NCBI RefSeq assembly: GCF_000025925.1
Contig: NC_014033.1
Location: 2,130,001 to 2,162,000, forward strand
Origin: Xylanibacter ruminicola 23
GTDB taxonomy: Bacteria; Bacteroidota; Bacteroidia; Bacteroidales; Bacteroidaceae
Length of the DNA stretch: 32,000 bases
Direction: 5' to 3'
Within the stretch, counting starts at the first letter, position 1. The number at the start of each line of letters is the position of its first letter. Positions 3,859 through 29,271 of the stretch are shown piece by piece. Under the pieces are notes generated by a model. It was not told the DNA's origin, ran no database searches, and saw only the letters and a list, made by a program, of their open reading frames with translations. The position numbers were made by a program, and so were the translations under genes.

Positions 3859-5196
3859 CTACATTTGTTTAATCTGTTCTTTAAGCCAAGAAGAACTTAT
3901 ACCCTCCGTTCGCCCAAGAACTACATGTTCCTTTCCGTGATTTTTACACCATTTGATTGCATCCTGGAAGCCTGAGTGTATCTGGTCTGGTCCCGTAACA
4001 AAAATATCAAAATCTGCGACTTTTACAATTTCATCGACGCCTTCGTATGTAATAACGTCATCTACAAACCTAATCGATTTTACCATATACATACGTTCTT
4101 CTGTCGAATACACAAGCTTCGCTTGCGGCTTATACTTCAGAACCACTTCCGATTTTTGTACAGCAACCGTCAATGAATCACCCAGTGCTTGTGCTCTCTT
4201 AAACAAATTAACATGACCTATATGAATCATGTCATAAACGCCAACAGTTAATACTTTTTTGCCACTTTTTTTTGTAATTTCAGAATCCATCAGGATTCTA
4301 TTTTTTTTATTACTATTCATATTTAATTTATCTGTTGTTATTAAATCAACTCCTTGACAGAACATCTTGTCTGCTTCACTTTTTTCATTAATTGTAGCAC
4401 ATTTCATTATGAACCCTAGAGATTTTCCATACTCAATAATAGCTTTATAGTCTTTATCAACAAAACCAGGAAACCACTCTGAGGAAATAATTAAAGAGGC
4501 TACTTTCTTTTTCTTTTTTAATTCATCTAATTTAGCAAAACTCCATGTATGGTCTATCTGATAGATAAGACTGTTATCAATCGATGATATAGAATAGAAA
4601 TCAGAAGGTGACACTTCCCAAATAACCATATTGAGCATTTGGTATCTTTTCACCAGCTCATAAAGAATTTTATATTTTCGTCTACCAAGAAACTTCTTCT
4701 CAAGATCTAGTTCTATACATATTGAGTTCTCTTTACACAACGATAACAATTCTTCGAGTGTTGTTACTTTAATCGTCCTTTTATCTGTTATGCTAAAATT
4801 ATATTTTATAATTTCTGAAAAATCTATAGAATCGATCTTAATATTAACAGAATTACCAAAGTCATCTTTAGCAAAATTGAGAAGATTATCATCATGACAT
4901 AATACTGGCACATTGTCTTTTGTAAACATTACATCACATTCAACAATTTTAAAACCTTCATTTATTAAATAGTCATATAAAGACAGAGAATTATTTGGGT
5001 ACTCACAACTCTCAAATCTTCCATGTGCAACGTACTGTTTCTTATAAAAAATATCTGATGGTGTTCCGCCATTACTTAGAGGTGGACATACTTTAGATAT
5101 AAAAAGAGATGTTACTTTATGAAGAGTAAATGTAAATCTTTTAGACAACCATAAAAAGATTATATACATTTCTTTTAAAGATTTCCTTATTATCAT
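3859..5196 (-). CDS. Fusion protein: N-terminal glycerophosphodiester phosphodiesterase (GDPD) domain plus C-terminal glycerol-3-phosphate cytidylyltransferase (TagD-like)
   Basis: The N half has YVAHGRFE...IVECDVMFTKDNVPVLCHDDNL (GDPD motifs). The C half has KKVLTVGVYDMIHIGHVNLFKRAQALGDSLTVAV (HxGH nucleotidyltransferase motif) followed by ...RTEGISSSWLKEQI. Confidence 0.75.
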   Translation of the reverse strand: MIIRKSLKEMYIIFLWLSKRFTFTLHKVTSLFISKVCPPLSNGGTPSDIFYKKQYVAHGRFESCEYPNNSLSLYDYLINEGFKIVECDVMFTKDNVPVLCHDDNLLNFAKDDFGNSVNIKIDSIDFSEIIKYNFSITDKRTIKVTTLEELLSLCKENSICIELDLEKKFLGRRKYKILYELVKRYQMLNMVIWEVSPSDFYSISSIDNSLIYQIDHTWSFAKLDELKKKKKVASLIISSEWFPGFVDKDYKAIIEYGKSLGFIMKCATINEKSEADKMFCQGVDLITTDKLNMNSNKKNRILMDSEITKKSGKKVLTVGVYDMIHIGHVNLFKRAQALGDSLTVAVQKSEVVLKYKPQAKLVYSTEERMYMVKSIRFVDDVITYEGVDEIVKVADFDIFVTGPDQIHSGFQDAIKWCKNHGKEHVVLGRTEGISSSWLKEQIKQM

Positions 5197-5338
5197 AAGA
5201 AGACAACTATATTAGACAAACTCTAGCTATACATTAAAATTCTAAACGGCGGATCATAATCTTTGCTGATTAACATCCTGACAGCCATTCTGACCGCTCT
5301 CGGCACAAATTCGTGCATCAGTGAATTCATTAATTCAT

Positions 5339-5377
5339 GTAAACTGTCAATTTTGACGTCCAGACTTGAAAACCACC
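5339..5377. repeat. Third copy of the 22-bp arm plus a 17-bp extension. It is direct relative to 828-866 and inverted relative to 989-1010.
   Basis: GTAAACTGTCAATTTTGACGTCcagactTGAAAACCACC versus 828-866 GTAAACTGTCAATTTTGACGTCctggcaTGAAAACCACC (3 mismatches in 39). Confidence 0.85.
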
Positions 5378-5581
5378 TCCAAAGATGGAAGAGTAACTTG
5401 ATGTAAGAAGGAAGATGTAAGACGTAAGAGACTATTGATGGAAGAAGGAAGAGGGAACTGATGACCGTAGGGAATCTGTGTCTGAAGCGTTATTGTTCAA
5501 CCTCAAATTGAGGTTTTGCTAAATTATACTCAAAGTTTAATCCTTGACCAAATAGGTCTTTCAACCATACAACATATTCAT

Positions 5582-8747: not shown

Positions 8748-8774
8748 TATATAATTTTATTTTTATTGTTCCAT

Positions 8775-8800
8775 CTGTCATAGGGACAGGTGTATGACAT
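8775..8800. repeat. Degenerate copy of the GGGACAGG palindrome (REP-like) family
   Basis: CTGTCATAGGGACAGGTGTATGACAT, compared with the consensus CTGnCAgGGGACAGGTnCCTGnCA seen at five other loci. Confidence 0.4.
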
Positions 8801-14878: not shown

Positions 14879-14936
14879 AGGCACGGGCTACACGGATTAA
14901 CACGGATTAATTTCCTATAGTCCTGTAGTCCGTTGC
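14879..14936. repeat. CACGGATTA tandem motif plus TAGTCCTGTAGTCCGTTGC (dispersed family, terminator-like position)
   Basis: AGGCACGGGCTACACGGATTAACACGGATTAATTTCCTATAGTCCTGTAGTCCGTTGC. Related copies lie at 24969-25028 and 29832-29860. Confidence 0.7.
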
Positions 14937-14973
14937 TAAAAACTAACTCTTAACCCTTAAAATTGTATTCTAT

Positions 14974-15078
14974 ATGGTGAAAGTAAACTGGACCAAAGTT
15001 GCTAAGGTCCTTAAATTTGTCGCAACAGTTATTACCTCAGTTCTCGGATCCATAGCCGTACAGTCATGCGCTCAGTAA
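14974..15078 (+). CDS. 34-aa small membrane peptide (smalltalk-like / holin-like position)
   Basis: It falls below the ORF-track size cut-off. ATG at 14974 and TAA at 15076 give MVKVNWTKVAKVLKFVATVITSVLGSIAVQSCAQ. The peptide overlaps the amidase start (15066) by 13 nt in another frame. Confidence 0.5.
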   Translation: MVKVNWTKVAKVLKFVATVITSVLGSIAVQSCAQ

Positions 15079-15512
15079 ACTTGATTGTTATTCACTGCAG
15101 CGCTACCCGCTGCAACAGGCGTTTCACTGTCGATATGCTCAAGGCTTGTCATAATGCCCGGTTCGGCAACAAGGGTATTGGTTACCACTATTACATTGAG
15201 CGTGATGGGCATCTGTATCAGACGCGTGATGAAAGCCTTGTGGGCATGCATGCCAGGCATTACAATGCGCACTCGATTGGCATCTGCTATGAAGGGGGCC
15301 TTAACGAGCGTGGCCAGGCTGCTGATACTCGTACGCCGGAACAGCGTGCAGCGTTAATTGCCTTATTGAGGAGCCTCAAGGAGGATTATCCTCAGGCCGA
15401 GATTCTGGGCCATCGGGAACTCGAAGGGGTTCACAAAGAGTGTCCATCTTTTGATTGTCAGGAGTACCGAGATTACTTCTCGGGCTCTTCTGTCAGAGGG
15501 ACAGCCTCTTGA
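15066..15512 (+). CDS. N-acetylmuramoyl-L-alanine amidase (Amidase_2/PGRP, AmpD-like)
   Basis: IVIHCSAT, GYHYYIERDG and GHRELEGVHKECPSF zinc-ligand blocks. The last ~8 codons are encoded by a REP-like repeat. Confidence 0.85.
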   Translation: MRSVNLIVIHCSATRCNRRFTVDMLKACHNARFGNKGIGYHYYIERDGHLYQTRDESLVGMHARHYNAHSIGICYEGGLNERGQAADTRTPEQRAALIALLRSLKEDYPQAEILGHRELEGVHKECPSFDCQEYRDYFSGSSVRGTAS

Positions 15513-15557
15513 CATCTTCAGGGATTTGTTTCTGACACAGGGACAGGTCCCTGACAC
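15490..15557. repeat. REP-like palindrome pair (GGGACAGG family)
   Basis: CTGTCAGAGGGACAGCCTCTTGACAT (15490-15515, degenerate) and CTGACACAGGGACAGGTCCCTGACAC (15532-15557). Confidence 0.75.
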
Positions 15558-15610
15558 CTTATTAATAAATATAGAAGGTTTTCAACACCTTCAAGTTTCC
15601 CTGATTGTCC

Positions 15611-15900
15611 TTTTCTCTGGCGCAGAGAAAAGAACTAAAAGAGACATTCACCCTTCCAAGGCCTCCCCTCAAGGGGAGGATGCAAAGTCAGGATTTGGGA
15701 AAACCGCAAATCCCTCCTACCTTTTTGGCAGGCCGGGACTTCGGCCTATATTGTTTATAGCTGCTCTATGAGCAGCGGCCCAAAGGGCCTACCCTAATAC
15801 CATGCTAAAACACCGAGGGGTTATGCCGCGCGGCTGGGGGCGAGCAGCCACCCAAAGAGCGAGGGTGGGTGGAGCGAGCTTTATGCGAGCGGGGGGATAA
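15611..15900. repeat. Mosaic hairpin-module repeat, copy B1 (full length)
   Basis: The core at 15691-15820 is nearly identical to 25888-26015. The 5' part matches 16093-16239 and the 3' part matches 27827-27929. Confidence 0.85.
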
Positions 15901-16092
15901 CCCTATTTTACTACTTGTGCAATCTCTTTCTTGAAGAGATCACGAGCATTGTGATGCACATTACCTAGATAAAATTCATCGAAAGCTCGCTTCAAACTTT
16001 CCTTTACCATCTCCTGTTGAGACAGCACGTTTCTATTCTTCATCGATTGAGCGATATTTGATATTTGCAAGTTTTTATCTTTTATTCGTTCA

Positions 16093-16239
16093 TTTCTTCT
16101 GACATCAGAAGAAAAAGAACCAAAGAAGACTGCTACCCCCAAGGCCCCCTTCAAAGGGGGATGCAAAGTCAGGATTTGGGAAAACCGCAAATCCCTCCTA
16201 CCTTTTTGGCAGGCCGGGACGACGGCCTATATTGTTTAT
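16093..16239. repeat. Mosaic hairpin-module repeat, copy B2 (5' half only)
   Basis: ...GATGCAAAGTCAGGATTTGGGAAAACCGCAAATCCCTCCTACCTTTTTGGCAGGCCGGGAC..CGGCCTATATTGTTTAT is shared with B1. Confidence 0.85.
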
Positions 16240-16244
16240 TGGGG

Positions 16245-16418
16245 CTAGCCTATGGTATAGACGAAGATGACAGCGAGGGCCATGAGGAGGGCGATGATGA
16301 TCAGGGTGATCTTTAGAACCTTCTCGATGACTTTTTTGCGCTGGATGTTGGCGAGGCTGCGCTGTTTGAACAGGCTGGAGCCGTCCTTTTTATGATGGGA
16401 ATGGTGATGCTCAGACAT
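16245..16418 (-). CDS. Possible 57-aa small membrane protein
   Basis: It falls below the ORF-track cut-off. Translation: MSEHHHSHHKKDGSSLFKQRSLANIQRKKVIEKVLKITLIIIALLMALAVIFVYTIG. It has one C-terminal TM helix, and its start codon abuts a heptamer array. Confidence 0.35.
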   Translation of the reverse strand: MSEHHHSHHKKDGSSLFKQRSLANIQRKKVIEKVLKITLIIIALLMALAVIFVYTIG

Positions 16419-16454
16419 TAAAGATTAAACATTAAACATTAAACATTAAACATT
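16419..16454. repeat. Heptamer tandem array, about 5 units of (C/G)ATTAAA
   Basis: TAAAGATTAAACATTAAACATTAAACATTAAACATT lies immediately upstream of the 16418 ATG (minus strand). Confidence 0.85.
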
Positions 16455-16530
16455 CTTGCGACCCTTCTTGCGTCCCTTCGGTAGCAAGCGACCAGAGGTC
16501 GAGCGCGGTGGCAAGCGATCAAAGATCGAG
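16455..16530. repeat. Hairpin module adjoining a heptamer array (copy 1)
   Basis: CTTGCGACCCTTC(TTGCGTCCCTTC)GGTAGCAAGCGACCAGAGGTCGAGCG.... The homologous copy is at 23500-23540. Confidence 0.7.
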
Positions 16531-16534
16531 TTCT

Positions 16535-17335
16535 TTACTTCAGGATATTGTAGAGTAACGAGGTGAGGGAGATGAGGATGCTGGTGGCGGAGAACCAGAG
16601 GGTGGTGGTTTGACCTACCTTTGAGTTCTGGGCCTTGACATTGTTGGGCTCTACATACACCACGTCGTTCTGCTGCAGATAATAATAAGGTGAGTTAACG
16701 ATGTTGGCATCGTTGAGGTTCAACGTTACAATCTGCTTTTTACCTGTGGCGTCCTCACGAATAAGCTTTACCTTATCGCGCACACCATAGATAGTAAGGT
16801 CGCCAGCCTGGGCCAAAGCCTCGAGGATGGTAATCTTCTCACGTGATACCTGGAAGCTACCGGGACGAGCTACCTCGCCTAATACTGATACCGAATAACT
16901 CGACATGCGTACGGTAACAATAGGATTCTCGGTCTCGGCCATATAAGGACGAATCTTCTCGGCAATCATCTTCTCGCACTCCGACTTGGTAAGTCCACCT
17001 ACCTTCAGGCGACCAATAATGGGATAATTGATATAGCCCTCGTTATCTACCAGATATGGCATCAGGGTACCACCACCACTTGCCATGGTACGGCCCTGCG
17101 AGTACTCGTTCTGTAACAGCAGATTGAAAGGTATCGAAGCCTCGGAGGTAGTGGTATTTACCGATATGGTAAGCTGATCCTTTGGCATGATGCGAGCATC
17201 ATACAGGAAACGTGAATTATCGAAGTTAATACTGTCGCTGTTCTGCAAATAAGCAACATTTTTCACTGTTCCACAAGAACTGAGCAGCAAAGCTGCTGAC
17301 AAAATTAAAAAATTTAAGAATTGAAATTTTTTCAT
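16535..17335 (-). CDS. wza: Wza-like outer-membrane polysaccharide export lipoprotein (Poly_export + SLBB)
   Basis: Lipoprotein signal LILSAALLLSSCG, the DQLTISV export motif and C-terminal SLBB-like repeats; 266 aa. Confidence 0.85.
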   Translation of the reverse strand: MKKFQFLNFLILSAALLLSSCGTVKNVAYLQNSDSINFDNSRFLYDARIMPKDQLTISVNTTTSEASIPFNLLLQNEYSQGRTMASGGGTLMPYLVDNEGYINYPIIGRLKVGGLTKSECEKMIAEKIRPYMAETENPIVTVRMSSYSVSVLGEVARPGSFQVSREKITILEALAQAGDLTIYGVRDKVKLIREDATGKKQIVTLNLNDANIVNSPYYYLQQNDVVYVEPNNVKAQNSKVGQTTTLWFSATSILISLTSLLYNILK

Positions 17336-25041: not shown

Positions 25042-25734
25042 ATGATTAGAGCAGTATTATTTGACATGGATGGCGTATTGTATGATTCGATGAAGAATCA
25101 CGCAGTGGCCTGGGTCCAGTCGATGAAGAAGTTCGGAATCAATATGACAGCCGATGATGCCTACGCCACTGAGGGAGCTCGTGGCGTAGACACCATTCGC
25201 TATATGGTAAAGCAACAGCAAGGTCGCGAGATTACCGAGGCAGAATCGCAGCTGATGTACGATGAGAAGACACGTATCTTTCACTCGATGCCAGAGGCGC
25301 CGATCATGCCGGGGATTTTATCGCTCATGGAGCAGATACATGCAGCTGGTATTACCATTGGCATCGTAACAGGCTCTGGACAGCGCCCCTTGATTAATCG
25401 CATCCTGCGTGATTTTGGCAAATACGTTACCATCGATAACATCACCACAGCCTACGATGTAAAACGAGGCAAGCCCAATCCCGATCCCTATCTCATGGGA
25501 TTGCAAAAGGCAGGCAATCTGCAACCGAGCGAAGCGATGGTAGTAGAAAACGCCCCCTTAGGTGTCCGCGCTGGTGTAGCTGCCGGTATTTACACCATCG
25601 CCGTCAACACCGGTCCCCTTCCCGATCAAGTCCTCCTTGATTCAGGCGCCAACATCCTTTTTCCTACTATGCAAGCCTTAAGCGATTCTTGGAAGGATCT
25701 TCCCCCTGTCAAGGGACAGGTCCCTGTCATCTAA
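25042..25734 (+). CDS. HAD-family phosphatase (beta-phosphoglucomutase/sugar-phosphatase-like)
   Basis: LFDMDGVLYDS, VTGSG, KRGKPNPDPY and VENAPLGVRAG motifs. The last ~9 codons (PPVKGQVPVI) are encoded by a REP-like repeat. Confidence 0.8.
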   Translation: MIRAVLFDMDGVLYDSMKNHAVAWVQSMKKFGINMTADDAYATEGARGVDTIRYMVKQQQGREITEAESQLMYDEKTRIFHSMPEAPIMPGILSLMEQIHAAGITIGIVTGSGQRPLINRILRDFGKYVTIDNITTAYDVKRGKPNPDPYLMGLQKAGNLQPSEAMVVENAPLGVRAGVAAGIYTIAVNTGPLPDQVLLDSGANILFPTMQALSDSWKDLPPVKGQVPVI

Positions 25735-25761
25735 CCCTGCCAGGGGACAGGTACCTGACAT
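25706..25761. repeat. REP-like palindrome pair upstream of the RAYT gene
   Basis: CTGTCAAGGGACAGGTCCCTGTCAT (25706-30) and CTGCCAGGGGACAGGTACCTGACAT (25737-61). Confidence 0.8.
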
Positions 25762-25887
25762 CTGCTGCCCTCCAACCTTTCCCCAAAATTCCCTTTTTCA
25801 CAACCACCCAACCCTCCTTCATCCTAAGGAGGGCTTCAAACCACTCTCCAAACCCCTCGCCAATCTTTGGCAAGGGGCTTAAATTCT

Positions 25888-26015
25888 GGATTTGGGAAAA
25901 CCCAAATCCATCCTATGTTTTGGCAGGCCGGGACTTCGGCCTATATTGCTTATGGCTGCTCCTTGAGCAGCGGCCCATAGGGCCTTTATCTAATACCATG
26001 CTAAAACACCGAGGG
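25888..26015. repeat. Mosaic hairpin-module repeat, copy B3 (core)
   Basis: GGATTTGGGAAAACCCAAATCC...GGCAGGCCGGGACTTCGGCCTATATTGCTTATGGCTGCTCCTTGAGCAGCGGCCCATAGGGCC...TAATACCATGCTAAAACACCGAGGG is nearly identical to 15691-15820. Confidence 0.85.
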
Positions 26016-26097
26016 TATTTGGGGCGAGCAGCCCCTAATATATAAAGAAAATGTGCACTTTTTCTGGAAAAATGATGAGATTGTTTGGGATTTTTAT

Positions 26098-26105
26098 TAT
26101 TTTTG
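26098..26105 (+). promoter_or_regulatory. Candidate -7 box TATTTTTG for the RAYT gene
   Basis: Exact TAnnTTTG match about 44 nt upstream of the ATG at 26149. Confidence 0.4.
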
Positions 26106-26148
26106 CAGCGCAAATAAAGAGCTAAGTTTAAATCATAAAACAGAAAAT

Positions 26149-26940
26149 ATGCCTAGACAATCACGAAAGGAGTCGGGAACGGGTATTTACCATGTGATGA
26201 TACGTGGTATCAACCACCAAAAGATATTTAATGATGAAGAGGACTATTTCCAATTCATCGCGACACTCGACAGAATGCGTTTTCGTTACGACGACGAAGG
26301 GGCACCATGCGGGAGCAATTGTACTTATTATGCCTATTGCTTGATGTCGAACCATCTGCATCTGCTGATACGTGAGCGCGGAGAGACCGTGGGTGAGACT
26401 ATCAAGCGCATTGCCGGTAGCTATGTGTTCTATTATAACCGCAAGTACGGTCGCGACGGGCACCTGTTCAAGGATCGATTCAAATCAGAGCCGGTTAACG
26501 ATATGGGGTACTTTACCACTCTACTCCGTTACATCCACCAAAACCCAGTGAAAGCAAAGCTTGTTGAGCGGGTTAGGGACTACGCCTATAGCAGTTGGGG
26601 AGAGTTTGACGGAACTGTAGAGCCGGTGTTTCAAATCTGCGATACGACAACAGTATTGAAGAGAATTCCATTTGACGAACTGAAGGAATGGGTTGACGAG
26701 CCGCTGGAGGATGACGTACCTTGTCTGGAAATGGAAGACACGCCGAGGGAGAGACCGTCGGACGATCAAATTATGCTATTGATTAAGGAGCATACCGGTG
26801 TTACGAATAGTACTGCATTCCAGCAATTGCAAGATGGTATCAAACGGGAAGTGTTGAAGTTTCTGAAATCAAAAGGAGCCTCTTATCGTCAGTTAGAGCG
26901 GTTAACAGGTGTAGGCCGCGGCCTTATCCAAGGCCTGTAG
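26149..26940 (+). CDS. REP-associated tyrosine transposase (RAYT; IS200-like Y1 HUH) with a C-terminal DnaA-C-like HTH
   Basis: GIYHVMIRGINHQKIF, the HUH motif YCLMSNHLHLLI and the catalytic-Tyr helix LLRYIHQNPVKAKLV. C-terminal region: ...ASYRQLERLTGVGRGLI. I trimmed the start from 26053 to the MPRQSRKES methionine, which has a promoter box upstream. Confidence 0.8.
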   Translation: MPRQSRKESGTGIYHVMIRGINHQKIFNDEEDYFQFIATLDRMRFRYDDEGAPCGSNCTYYAYCLMSNHLHLLIRERGETVGETIKRIAGSYVFYYNRKYGRDGHLFKDRFKSEPVNDMGYFTTLLRYIHQNPVKAKLVERVRDYAYSSWGEFDGTVEPVFQICDTTTVLKRIPFDELKEWVDEPLEDDVPCLEMEDTPRERPSDDQIMLLIKEHTGVTNSTAFQQLQDGIKREVLKFLKSKGASYRQLERLTGVGRGLIQGL

Positions 26941-26942
26941 CC

Positions 26943-27000
26943 CATGACAGGGGACAGGTTCCTGACAGTTCTTCCACATGACAGGGGACAGGTACTCCCT
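26943..27000. repeat. REP-like palindrome pair immediately downstream of the RAYT stop
   Basis: CATGACAGGGGACAGGTTCCTGACAG (26943-68) and CATGACAGGGGACAGGTACTCCCT (26977-27000). Confidence 0.8.
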
Positions 27001-27458
27001 TAACGTTCTACCAATTCCTGCTCTATGAACTGTTGGGGTGTGTAGATTTTCACTTGTCCATCTGTCGACTCCTTATAGTCTGAAATATTAAATGAGACCA
27101 AAGCCTCACATCCAACCTTCTGAGCTACTTGATACTGACAACTGTCTTCCAAGTCTTTATACCTTTTATCAGAAACACCTTGTAAAAGGCTATTCTTATC
27201 ATGCTCTGCAATATCAAACATCTGAAGTATCTTATTCATGATAATCCGAAGACTCTGCAAACACACCTCGCCAACGAGCCCTTGTTCTTTATGTAAGTAT
27301 TTCAGAATAATGAAATGTATGGTATAGAAAGCTCCTACAGACATGAACATCTGAGCGCCTCTGTTATGGAGTTCTTTTAATAGTTTCTCCGCCACCTCAT
27401 ACTTCTCACGATGCATGAAGTATTCTAGAATGATATTGGTATCAATAAAGACTTTCAT
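27000..27458 (-). CDS. vapC: PIN-domain toxin (VapC-like)
   Basis: MKVFIDTNIILEY, DLEDSCQY and SFNISDY acidic blocks; 152 aa. Confidence 0.8.
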   Translation of the reverse strand: MKVFIDTNIILEYFMHREKYEVAEKLLKELHNRGAQMFMSVGAFYTIHFIILKYLHKEQGLVGEVCLQSLRIIMNKILQMFDIAEHDKNSLLQGVSDKRYKDLEDSCQYQVAQKVGCEALVSFNISDYKESTDGQVKIYTPQQFIEQELVER

Positions 27459-27459
27459 A

Positions 27460-27747
27460 TCAGATTCCGTATTTATCGGTTAGAGCCTCTTCAAGAAGTT
27501 CATCTGCACTGACACTGCTATCTGCCATAAAGCCACCCAATTTTAAGAAACCCTCAGAATCGTTCTCAAGAGCATTTATCTTCTGTGTGAACTTTTTAGC
27601 ATCAACAGCTTTTGCTGCTAAGGCTGCCTTTTCCTGTTCTAAAAGTCTTTTGGTAAGTGCAACTCTTACAGCCTTGCTTTGTCCCTGTATTAATGTCCAA
27701 AGCGCATCAACAGGAGACACTTCTACTTGATTATATGTTGTTACCAT
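27460..27747 (-). CDS. Putative cognate antitoxin
   Basis: 95 aa, helical and charged. Its stop lies 1 nt from the PIN start. No family was recognised. Confidence 0.55.
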   Translation of the reverse strand: MVTTYNQVEVSPVDALWTLIQGQSKAVRVALTKRLLEQEKAALAAKAVDAKKFTQKINALENDSEGFLKLGGFMADSSVSADELLEEALTDKYGI

Positions 27748-27826
27748 AATCGTAAATTAAATAAATCTGCTGCAAATATAAAACAAATAGTTGAAACTTG
27801 CAAGTTTTTCTTTTGAAAAACTCAAC

Positions 27827-27953
27827 TAATACCTGAAAACACCGAGGGGGATGCCGCGCGGCTGGGGGCGGGCTGCCACCAAAGAGCGAGGGTGGGTGGA
27901 GCGAGCGTCCAGCAAGCGAGGGAATCGGATGACAGGGACCTGTCCCCTGGCAG
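27827..27953. repeat. Mosaic repeat copy B4 (3' half) fused to an inverted REP-like palindrome
   Basis: TAATACCTGAAAACACCGAGGGGGATGCCGCGCGGCTGGGGGCGGGCTGCCACCAAAGAGCGAGGGTGGGTGGAGCGAGC matches 15797-15868. It is followed by ATGACAGGGACCTGTCCCCTGGCAG (27929-53). Confidence 0.85.
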
Positions 27954-28550: not shown

Positions 28551-29271
28551 AGCGTATTAAGCCTTGATACTTGTGACGGAAATCCAAGTCCTTACGGAAG
28601 GCGATGGTGATATTCTGCTCCTCGTAGCCCAACTGGGTGAGCATGGGAACGAGGACCTTAGCGGCGTTGGCACGGGCGGTTTCTTCGATACCCATATCGG
28701 GGATGCTCTGCAGGATGGCCTCCCTACCCTGCTGCTGATAGTTGGCCAACTCCTCGTCGCTAAAATGCGCACGCGTGAGACCGACGTACTGCTTGACGTT
28801 CTGCTGATCAATCTTAGAACTGGTCATCACCACCTGTGGATCGGGGAGGATGATGGTAATCTGATTACCGCTGCGCTCGATGTTCTGTTCGGAGAACTCG
28901 GAGAAATCGATATACGCCTTGATTTTGGCATCCATGGGGATGGCAATCTTTCTGTCGGCCAGGGGCACCTTGAGGTTGAACTGCTTGCTCATCAACTGGC
29001 CTTTGAGGCGCAAGGCATCGTCGTGGGTGATAATCTTATGTACGCGATACTCGGCGGTGTAGAGTTTGGAGCATTTTTGGACTTGGAGAATGAGCATGGG
29101 GACGGTATCGATACTTCTGCCAGGGGACAGGTTCCTGGCATCTGAATCAGCTGCCAGGAACCTGTCCCCTGGCAGAACTGGCAGAAGAAGCTGGCAGCGT
29201 GTCAGCAAACCGAACAATACCAACACCAGCAGCGCGGCAGTTGCAATCAGAATGTTACGACGCTGTTTCAT
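28540..29271 (-). CDS. DUF4230-like membrane-anchored protein carrying an in-frame REP-doublet insertion after the TM helix
   Basis: TM helix ILIATAALLVLVLFGLL. The linker PVLPGDRFLAADSDARNLSPGRS is encoded by the 29117-29175 palindrome. The stop overlaps the next gene by 11 nt. Confidence 0.6.
   Translation of the reverse strand: MKQRRNILIATAALLVLVLFGLLTRCQLLLPVLPGDRFLAADSDARNLSPGRSIDTVPMLILQVQKCSKLYTAEYRVHKIITHDDALRLKGQLMSKQFNLKVPLADRKIAIPMDAKIKAYIDFSEFSEQNIERSGNQITIILPDPQVVMTSSKIDQQNVKQYVGLTRAHFSDEELANYQQQGREAILQSIPDMGIEETARANAAKVLVPMLTQLGYEEQNITIAFRKDLDFRHKYQGLIRFED
29117..29175. repeat. Perfect 24-bp inverted REP doublet (REPIN-like) inside a CDS
   Basis: CTGCCAGGGGACAGGTTCCTGGCA (29117-40) and its exact reverse complement TGCCAGGAACCTGTCCCCTGGCAG (29152-75), separated by 11 nt. 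Confidence 0.9.

Follow-up and report, generated by a model that had tools for sequence, protein, structure and literature searches.

A 263-amino-acid (aa) open reading frame (ORF) of Xylanibacter ruminicola 23, open from 26149 to 26940 on the forward strand, most likely encodes an intact nuclease-ligase of the HUH/Y1 kind that acts on single-stranded DNA and resembles the REP-associated tyrosine transposases (RAYTs; REP, repetitive extragenic palindrome). The gene, the only one of its clade in the genome, would sit amid a small population of its own 25-nucleotide (nt) repeat, and among the types described so far, the TIRYT type fits it best. Positions are given in the window, that is, the whole 32,000-nt stretch that was analyzed (2130001–2162000 of the complete 3,619,559-bp genome, 47.7% G+C), unless genome coordinates are stated, and compared loci are numbered with the prefix L.

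The RAYT-like gene and its protein

The gene starts with the ATG at 26149, and the same start is used in 83 aligned homologs. An earlier note on this window had read an HUH motif (NHLHLL) and a catalytic tyrosine (YIHQNPV) from the letters alone, and we found both intact in the 263-aa product; the class-2 signature Y---NP is present (YIHQNP) alongside the HUH motif NHLH. The nearest named relative, Xylanibacter (Prevotella) ruminicola Ga6B6, has an ortholog with 99% protein identity, and dN/dS among five orthologs is 0.04–0.10, which indicates that the gene is under purifying selection. The family comprises 602 clusters at 50% identity (E ≤ 1e-30). Few of its members are found on plasmids (17 of 72,556 records, each <40% identity) or on phages (1 record), and the gene is patchily distributed within the genus.

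To which side of the Y1 superfamily does this enzyme belong? The query matched Pfam Y1_Tnp (E 1.9e-8) and the NCBIfam model REP_Tyr_transpos (E 4e-16), and the NCBIfam search of the query returned this RAYT model alone and no model of the IS200 family (IS, insertion sequence). A family profile made from 84 diverse full-length homologs matched E. coli TnpA_REP (4ER8) with an E of 4e-10, whereas the IS200/IS605 TnpA chains in the PDB reached an E of 0.19 or worse. Similarly, the best fold match of the AlphaFold2 (AF2) model (mean pLDDT 94.1, pTM 0.79) was 4ER8 (E 3e-8, TMt 0.72), with the ISDra2 and IS608 TnpA proteins at ~4e-4. These results, from profile comparison and a predicted structure, support the placement of the enzyme on the TnpA_REP side of the superfamily and not on the IS200 side.

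A TAnnTTTG element lies upstream of the gene (Table 1) and also upstream of divergent orthologs, where it is found between the upstream repeat and the ATG, inside the repeat-bounded unit. This arrangement suggests that the gene has its own Bacteroidota-type promoter.

Gene and palindrome as a cognate pair

We compared the flanks of the gene with those of 22 related loci from other Prevotellaceae and Bacteroidales genomes. Orthologs in at least 10 other genomes have palindromes ~35–150 nt upstream and 6–27 nt downstream, and these palindromes differ by protein clade. Orthologs with 85–99% identity carry the same palindrome 6–11 nt past the stop codon and mostly one upstream too. At 60–78% identity, the palindromes are variants such as GGGACAGGTCATTG, GGGACAGGTCCGTG and GGGGACAGTTCCTG, and in the clades at 38–47%, different palindromes (GTGCACAGCGGAACCGACCCTATTGTGCAC, GTACACAAAAGGGACGGTTCCTTTTGTGTAC, AAAATGGGGTCAGACCCCATTTT) occupy the same positions.

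Furthermore, the abundance of the palindrome tracked the presence of this RAYT clade, a check that the earlier note had proposed. In five genomes with an ortholog of ≥85% identity, exact cores numbered 8, 4, 8, 38 and 7, whereas among 60 relatives without a close ortholog, 53 had 0 copies and 7 had 1–2; a reversed-pattern control gave 0–1 matches. In the 38-copy genome, RUG10713, the copies are spread over at least 12 contigs, many of them as doublets, and there is one gene of this clade. Such dispersal of 38 copies with a single gene points to mobilization in trans of the REP/RAYT kind and not to an IS that has multiplied. The other four genomes have most or all of their copies no more than a few kb from the gene, and in the 44–45% clade, the repeats are likewise mostly near the gene. 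Because the palindrome co-varies with the protein clade, tracks the presence of the gene and has expanded in a relative with a single gene, these sequence comparisons support the view that gene and palindrome belong together as cognate partners, as in REP/RAYT systems.

The repeat unit and its local distribution

Four genomes supplied 57 copies, whose alignment gave the consensus yCTGCCAGGGGACAGGTNCCTGGCAk, with conservation at background level just beyond the 25–26-nt unit. The consensus folds into a 7–8-bp stem with a 9-nt loop (−6.9 kcal/mol, z −2.6), and the doublet at 29115–29177 is far more stable (−36.4 kcal/mol, z −11.6). Closely spaced inverted pairs in this alignment had the same polarity in 12 of 12 cases, at a spacing of 30–45 nt, and such uniform polarity and spacing match the behavior of REPIN doublets. 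The repeat carries GGGGACAG, which fits GGGGWSAS; ortholog L034 has GGGGTCAG, and L029–L032 deviate.

Within the window, the core GGGACAGGTNCCTG (≤2 mismatches) has 10 matches compared with 0.41 expected from shuffles, and no shuffle gave 10 (copies in Table 1). The copies that the earlier note had listed at 8775, 15490–15557, 27929–53 and 29117–75 are all there, those at 8774 and 15489 being degenerate. Its statement that palindromes directly flank the gene on both sides holds downstream, where copy 3 begins 3 nt past the stop codon, a position kept in orthologs L015–L018, L022, L024, L027 and L035; the upstream pair, on the other hand, is 388 nt from the ATG. Half-repeat duplications like the one behind copy 3 occur behind the downstream copy in several orthologs. 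Copy 1 overlaps the final codons of a HAD hydrolase ORF (25042–25734), whose stop codon (25732–25734) is 2 nt past the copy.

How abundant is the repeat beyond this locus? The whole 3.62-Mb genome has 8 exact cores, of which 7 are in the window, within 14 kb of the gene, and a 24-mer search with ≤5 substitutions gave 19 genome matches. The commonest gene-flanking 16-mer occurs 4 times, and the top 16-mers of the genome belong to heptamer arrays. These counts reject an abundant genome-wide REP and do not bear out the description of the palindromes as an abundant, scattered family; the palindrome is nevertheless not wholly confined to the window, in that 1 of the 8 exact cores lies outside it. 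The repeat family is very small, and nearly all of it lies in the 14 kb around the gene.

Doublets of a diverged sister family, GTGACTGGGGACTGGTNCCTGTCA with GTGACAAGGGACAGGGCCCAGTCA, are found at genome positions 1219120–1219174, 2267749–2267803, 2443456–2443479 and 1781118–1781141, with no adjacent Y1 gene; they may represent relics of an older repeat type.

Rearrangements at the repeats

The gene adjoins the same pair of DUF4230 genes in three species, with a RAYT dS of 0.55–0.70, and the order of the modules around it varies. In this window, the order is repeats, RAYT, repeat, PIN–antitoxin, repeat, DUF4230 pair. Ga6B6 is collinear with the window apart from the second DUF4230-family ORF, in which other sequence takes the place of the doublet segment. 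In L016, the order is repeat, PIN–antitoxin, repeat, RAYT, repeat, repeat, DUF4230 pair, and in L017, the RAYT module has the opposite orientation with respect to the DUF4230 pair, with no PIN cassette found in that genome. The ends of the homology blocks lie at or within ~20 nt of repeat copies; the breakpoints of interspecies rearrangements thus fall at repeats.

The PIN cassette, downstream of the RAYT gene here, lies upstream of it in RUG13469 (L016:361–1180), and it was not found in two other RAYT-carrying genomes. The inverted doublet at 29117–29175 is in frame in a DUF4230-family ORF. L016 and L017 have it as well; in Ga6B6, which is 93% identical in nucleotides around the site, unrelated sequence stands in place of the whole segment 29113–29270. 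The copies at 25706, 25737, 26944 and 27930 are collinear with Ga6B6 at 93% nucleotide identity. More distant orthologs lie in unrelated contexts, often regions rich in capsule or toxin–antitoxin genes. An empty site was sought in genomes of the same genus and none was found among these highly diverged relatives, in which the neighboring gene is at most 58% identical at the aa level and synteny beyond the DUF4230 pair is lost. The earlier note had proposed a live or recently active system, and for this genome, the data do not go that far: they reveal purifying selection and past rearrangements at repeats only.

A solo repeat at genome position 2084252–2084275 (L081) lies beside a gene that has a 74%-identical homolog directly upstream of the RAYT gene in Prevotella sp. 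UBA2809, which hints that the RAYT gene has occupied or left repeat-marked sites; the flanks of this copy map to different contigs in other genomes. In Xylanibacter brevis (L020:3609–3944 and 4907–5581), the RAYT gene and the palindromes on its flanks are enclosed by two copies of a sugar-transferase-like gene, one truncated and one full; their N-termini are near-identical, and these copies may be a duplication created at insertion. Finally, a 466-nt segment with a 102-aa ORF (no Pfam match) is 97% identical between L022 (4833–5297) and L024 (3276–3741), two loci whose RAYT genes have diverged beyond the reach of blastn. The segment begins 2 nt past the downstream repeat of the RAYT gene in one genome and upstream of the RAYT gene in the other, without clear repeat boundaries on both sides.

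Proposed mechanism and competing explanations

If it works like E. coli TnpA_REP and IS608 TnpA, the enzyme would recognize the folded repeat on single-stranded DNA and cut beside it through a 5'-phosphotyrosine link at Tyr128, with a metal held at His69/His71. Rejoining of the ends would then copy or move repeat singlets and inverted doublets in trans, and the repeats would become sites of local rearrangement. The C-terminal helix-turn-helix (HTH) domain probably contributes further DNA binding, whether of the repeat or as part of autoregulation.

Several points weigh against the interpretation as a TIRYT-type enzyme with its own repeat. To our knowledge, no member of the subclass has been characterized biochemically, and the mechanism therefore rests on analogy. 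The match to the NCBIfam RAYT model NF047646 scored 59.1 bits, under its 80-bit equivalog cut-off. The three gene-flanking copies have stem mismatches and form poor hairpins (z-scores in Table 1), and the flanking copies here are all in the same orientation, while orthologs show every combination of orientations. The consensus is without a GTAG-type 5' foot, and classical REPs are far more numerous (>100 per genome). The assignment to the subclass is based on architecture, motifs and repeat type rather than on a tree against reference sets. In the survey of TnpA_Y1 proteins by Quentin et al. (2018, PMC6006769), no REP-like sequences were reported for subclass 2.1, whereas subclass 2.6 (group 5), which is from the same phylum (Bacteroidetes), has NH[LIV]H and YIH[QN]NP strings that match the present ones literally.

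Could the repeats be cassette boundaries, such that the enzyme, or recombination at the repeats, moves whole repeat-bounded modules (the PIN–antitoxin pair and the RAYT gene itself)? We regard this as unlikely, although it would explain three things: in at least five genomes, most repeat copies cluster within a few kb of the gene; the PIN cassette changes sides between two species and was not found in two other genomes; and a third species has the RAYT module inverted. If it were true, each RAYT gene would be surrounded by a small, locally shuffling gene array.

It is rather improbable that the locus is an autonomous IS of the IS200/IS605 style, in which the gene moves as a unit with its two flanking hairpins, leaving the other palindromes behind as solo ends or as miniature elements derived from ends. 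The gene and its palindromes do occur in unrelated contexts across species and patchily in the genus, but the locus at the DUF4230 pair has been kept in three species at the dS given above, and homologs are rare on plasmids and phages. The direct orientation of the flanking copies here and in L024 and L035 is like that of IS200/IS605 left and right ends, whereas the tyrosine motif is Y---NP and not the IS200-type Y[IV]ENQ, and the profile and fold matches favor TnpA_REP. Finally, the solo repeat at 2084252–75 adjoins a gene whose homolog abuts a RAYT gene in another species, and many metagenomic homologs stand alone on ~1-kb contigs, as expected if flanking repeats break assemblies. On the other hand, each genome has a single copy of the clade, including the one with 38 repeats, and no near-identical copies with shared ends were seen.

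A fully domesticated enzyme, used for local DNA processing or for regulation through its HTH domain, with the palindromes as fixed binding or regulatory sites that are immobile in this lineage, is distinctly improbable. The expansion of the repeat to 38 dispersed copies, many of them doublets, in a single-gene relative argues against it, as do the variable presence of the doublet among close relatives and the intact catalytic HUH motif and tyrosine. It would nevertheless agree with the strong purifying selection on the gene, with a repeat family that is tiny, local and partly decayed here, with the collinearity of the four gene-adjacent copies with Ga6B6 and with the retention of two Tyr-less paralogs under purifying selection.

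It is barely credible that the palindromes are common hairpins with a terminator or regulatory role that happen to lie near a transposase gene. Copies are indeed found where genes end and where convergent genes meet, and the consensus is able to fold. Yet across many genomes the palindrome changes with the protein clade, is nearly absent from 60 relatives without the gene, keeps its position 3–27 nt past the stop codon in orthologs despite unrelated contexts and has no T-run behind the hairpin.

The C-terminal tail

In the AF2 model, residues 203–263 form a confident five-helix domain (pLDDT above 90) that terminates in a conserved G-A-S-x-R-Q-L-x-R-L-T-G stretch. The tail matched HTH_23, HTH_7 and HTH_28 in 5–7 of the 84 family members, with the query itself below threshold, and the sigma-70 region 4 model also matched a few of the 84. 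The earlier note had described the tail as a DnaA-C-like HTH that classical RAYTs lack. The likeness to DnaA failed four tests: Pfam Bac_DnaA_C (PF08299) had no match in the query or in the 84 family members; a six-frame scan of the genome with PF08299 recovered dnaA only; hhalign against domain IV of the genome's own DnaA gave a probability of 0.2%; and a Foldseek search with the isolated domain had a best E of 4.5, with nothing significant and no DnaA. The tail is better named a short HTH domain. Its presence is confirmed, but as a departure from known RAYTs it is not new, since an HTH-tailed RAYT-like subclass has already been described (PMC3733652, PMC6006769).

Paralogs and other features of the window

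The description of the gene as single-copy-like is correct for its clade but not for the family, as the genome has two more paralogs at 37% identity. Both are 258 aa long and lie outside the window, at genome positions 546678–547454 (+; L002) and 1816481–1817257 (−; L003). They are 92% identical to each other at the DNA level, an identity confined to the coding sequence and ~6 nt on either side, and the dN/dS between them is 0.065 (purifying selection). Both keep an HUH motif (DHFH) and the HTH tail, and the catalytic tyrosine is replaced by histidine (LRHISQAP); by their sequences, they look like a conserved, probably non-catalytic derivative. They were rejected as partners of the palindrome, as they have no such flanking palindromes. 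A 112-nt, partly self-complementary element, 97% identical at L003 (reverse strand, 1365–1476) and L002 (435–546), adjoins the upstream side of one of these Tyr-less paralogs and lies ~950 nt upstream of the other.

Table 1. Coordinates of the RAYT-like gene, the repeat copies and neighboring features in the window.
Feature	Position	Strand	Remarks
RAYT-like HUH/Y1 enzyme (predicted), 263 aa	26149–26940	+	Catalytic domain ~residues 1–150, helical linker, C-terminal five-helix HTH-type domain ~203–263
Candidate Bacteroidota −7 promoter element, TAttTTTG	26098–26105	+	Published Bacteroides promoter consensus
Repeat copy 1, CTGTCAAGGGACAGGTCCCTGTCA	25706–25729	+	Weak hairpin, z −1.8
Repeat copy 2, CTGCCAGGGGACAGGTACCTGACA	25737–25760	+	No stable hairpin, z +0.3
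Repeat copy 3	26944–26967	+	Past the RAYT stop codon; hairpin z −0.6
Half copy, 17 nt, CATGACAGGGGACAGGT	26977–26993	+	Same sequence as 26943–26959
Repeat copy 4	27930–27953	−	
Inverted doublet, REPIN-like	29117–29140 and 29152–29175	+ and −	Perfect 26-bp stem; 5' part of DUF4230-family ORF
Repeat copy with exact core	15531–15556	+	
Degenerate copy	15489–15514		
Degenerate intergenic copy	8774–8799	+	2 core mismatches
PIN toxin and small upstream ORF (putative antitoxin)	27000–27747	−	Cassette bounded by repeat copies
Unrelated mosaic repeat, ~245 nt	25791–26037		~7 genomic copies; between the upstream repeat pair and the promoter region of the gene

The mosaic repeat belongs to an intergenic family (~230 nt, ~7 genomic copies) that is found in the window at 25791–26037, 15665–15900, 16146–16246 and 27826–27925. 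Mosaic repeats recurrently lie beside palindrome copies, for example at genome position 2083284–2083508 near the palindrome at 2084252. Ortholog L016 has no mosaic-repeat match between its upstream repeat copy, which is ~130 nt before the ATG, and the gene; its homology to the window begins at 26042. The region 14900–16600 is rich in repeats, and an Rfam scan of the window found no known RNA family.

Significance and comparison with known systems

This kind of system is already known; what is new is the lineage in which it occurs, the rumen Prevotellaceae. The repeat family is unusually small and local. The findings extend a little-studied class of HTH-tailed RAYT-like proteins (TIRYT/subclass 2.1) to these bacteria with a clear pairing of gene and repeat, and the defined pair of enzyme and substrate (a 263-aa protein and a 25-nt hairpin) would be a convenient test case for a large family. 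For genome annotation, they account for odd gene ends, such as the C-terminus of the HAD hydrolase and the doublet in the DUF4230-like ORF, as well as for local differences in gene order between related species. The most interesting feature is the set of tidy examples of rearrangement at repeats. Our literature search turned up no description of such a system in Prevotella or Prevotellaceae, and Prevotella is absent from the supplements of Quentin et al. (PMC6006769).

TIRYTs are encoded by TIRtrons, in which RAYT-like genes are flanked by non-GTAG repeats; many of these repeats share GGGGWSAS, some are self-complementary, and they are low to moderate in number and arranged singly, as dimers or in clusters (Di Nocera, De Gregorio and Rocco 2013, PMC3733652). 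TIRYTs have been equated with TnpA_Y1 subclass 2.1, which corresponds to group 1 of Bertels and whose members are 238 aa long at the median, show 'FQ' as a variant of the W motif and have C-terminal tails that resemble Bac_DnaA_C, HTH_23 or HTH_28 (PMC6006769). For RAYT group 1, the flanking 16-mers occur ~12 times on average, and the rates of duplication and of plasmid carriage are the highest among the groups (Bertels et al. 2017, PMC5581495).

The subclass 2.6 proteins, whose motif strings match ours, differ in being ~179 aa long with no distal tail, in having WQ rather than FK/FQ and in their listed repeats, for example GCTAG followed by an 8-bp stem with a 3-nt loop. With the IS200/IS605 TnpA proteins (IS608, ISDra2), the present locus shares the HUH/Y1 fold, gene-flanking hairpins and flanking copies on the same strand, but the motifs are different (DH[VI]H and Y[IV]ENQ in IS200/IS605), the profile and fold matches are weaker, the gene is not multicopy and there is no tnpB. 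E. coli TnpA_REP itself (RayT/YafM, 4ER8), with its REPtron, is the best profile and fold match. As in the E. coli and Pseudomonas RAYT systems (Nunvar 2010, PMC2817692; Bertels and Rainey 2011, PMC3116915), a single-copy gene is bracketed by a cognate, co-varying hairpin repeat, and as in RAYT/REPIN systems, there are inverted doublets of fixed polarity and, in a relative, expansion of the repeat with one gene copy. Unlike E. coli TnpA_REP, the present system has no GTAG foot, 8 repeat copies (up to 38 in a relative) instead of hundreds, and an additional ~110-aa linker and HTH tail.

The present system differs from the TIRYT/TIRtron pattern in that the tyrosine motif is YIHQNP and not YIELNP or Y[IV]HLNP, that no member matched Bac_DnaA_C but short HTH models only, and that, compared with subclass 2.1 as surveyed, the flanking repeats here form hairpins and REPIN-like doublets. 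The HuH strings of subclass 2.1 are NHVH or NH[YF]H and its W strings W[EQ] or FQ; the HuH string of the family consensus here is NHxH. The likenesses are a Y1 enzyme of ~240–270 aa with a C-terminal HTH extension; a gene flanked at short, fairly fixed distances by GGGGWSAS repeats (here GGGGACAG); partly self-complementary repeats present as singlets, dimers and clusters, in low to moderate number and with few gene copies; and a family consensus LFQDRF, which is the 'FQ' form of the W motif, the query itself having FK. As judged from sequence, the gene and its repeat fit best with the HTH-tailed TIRYT/TIRtron systems (TnpA_Y1 subclass 2.1, Bertels group 1).

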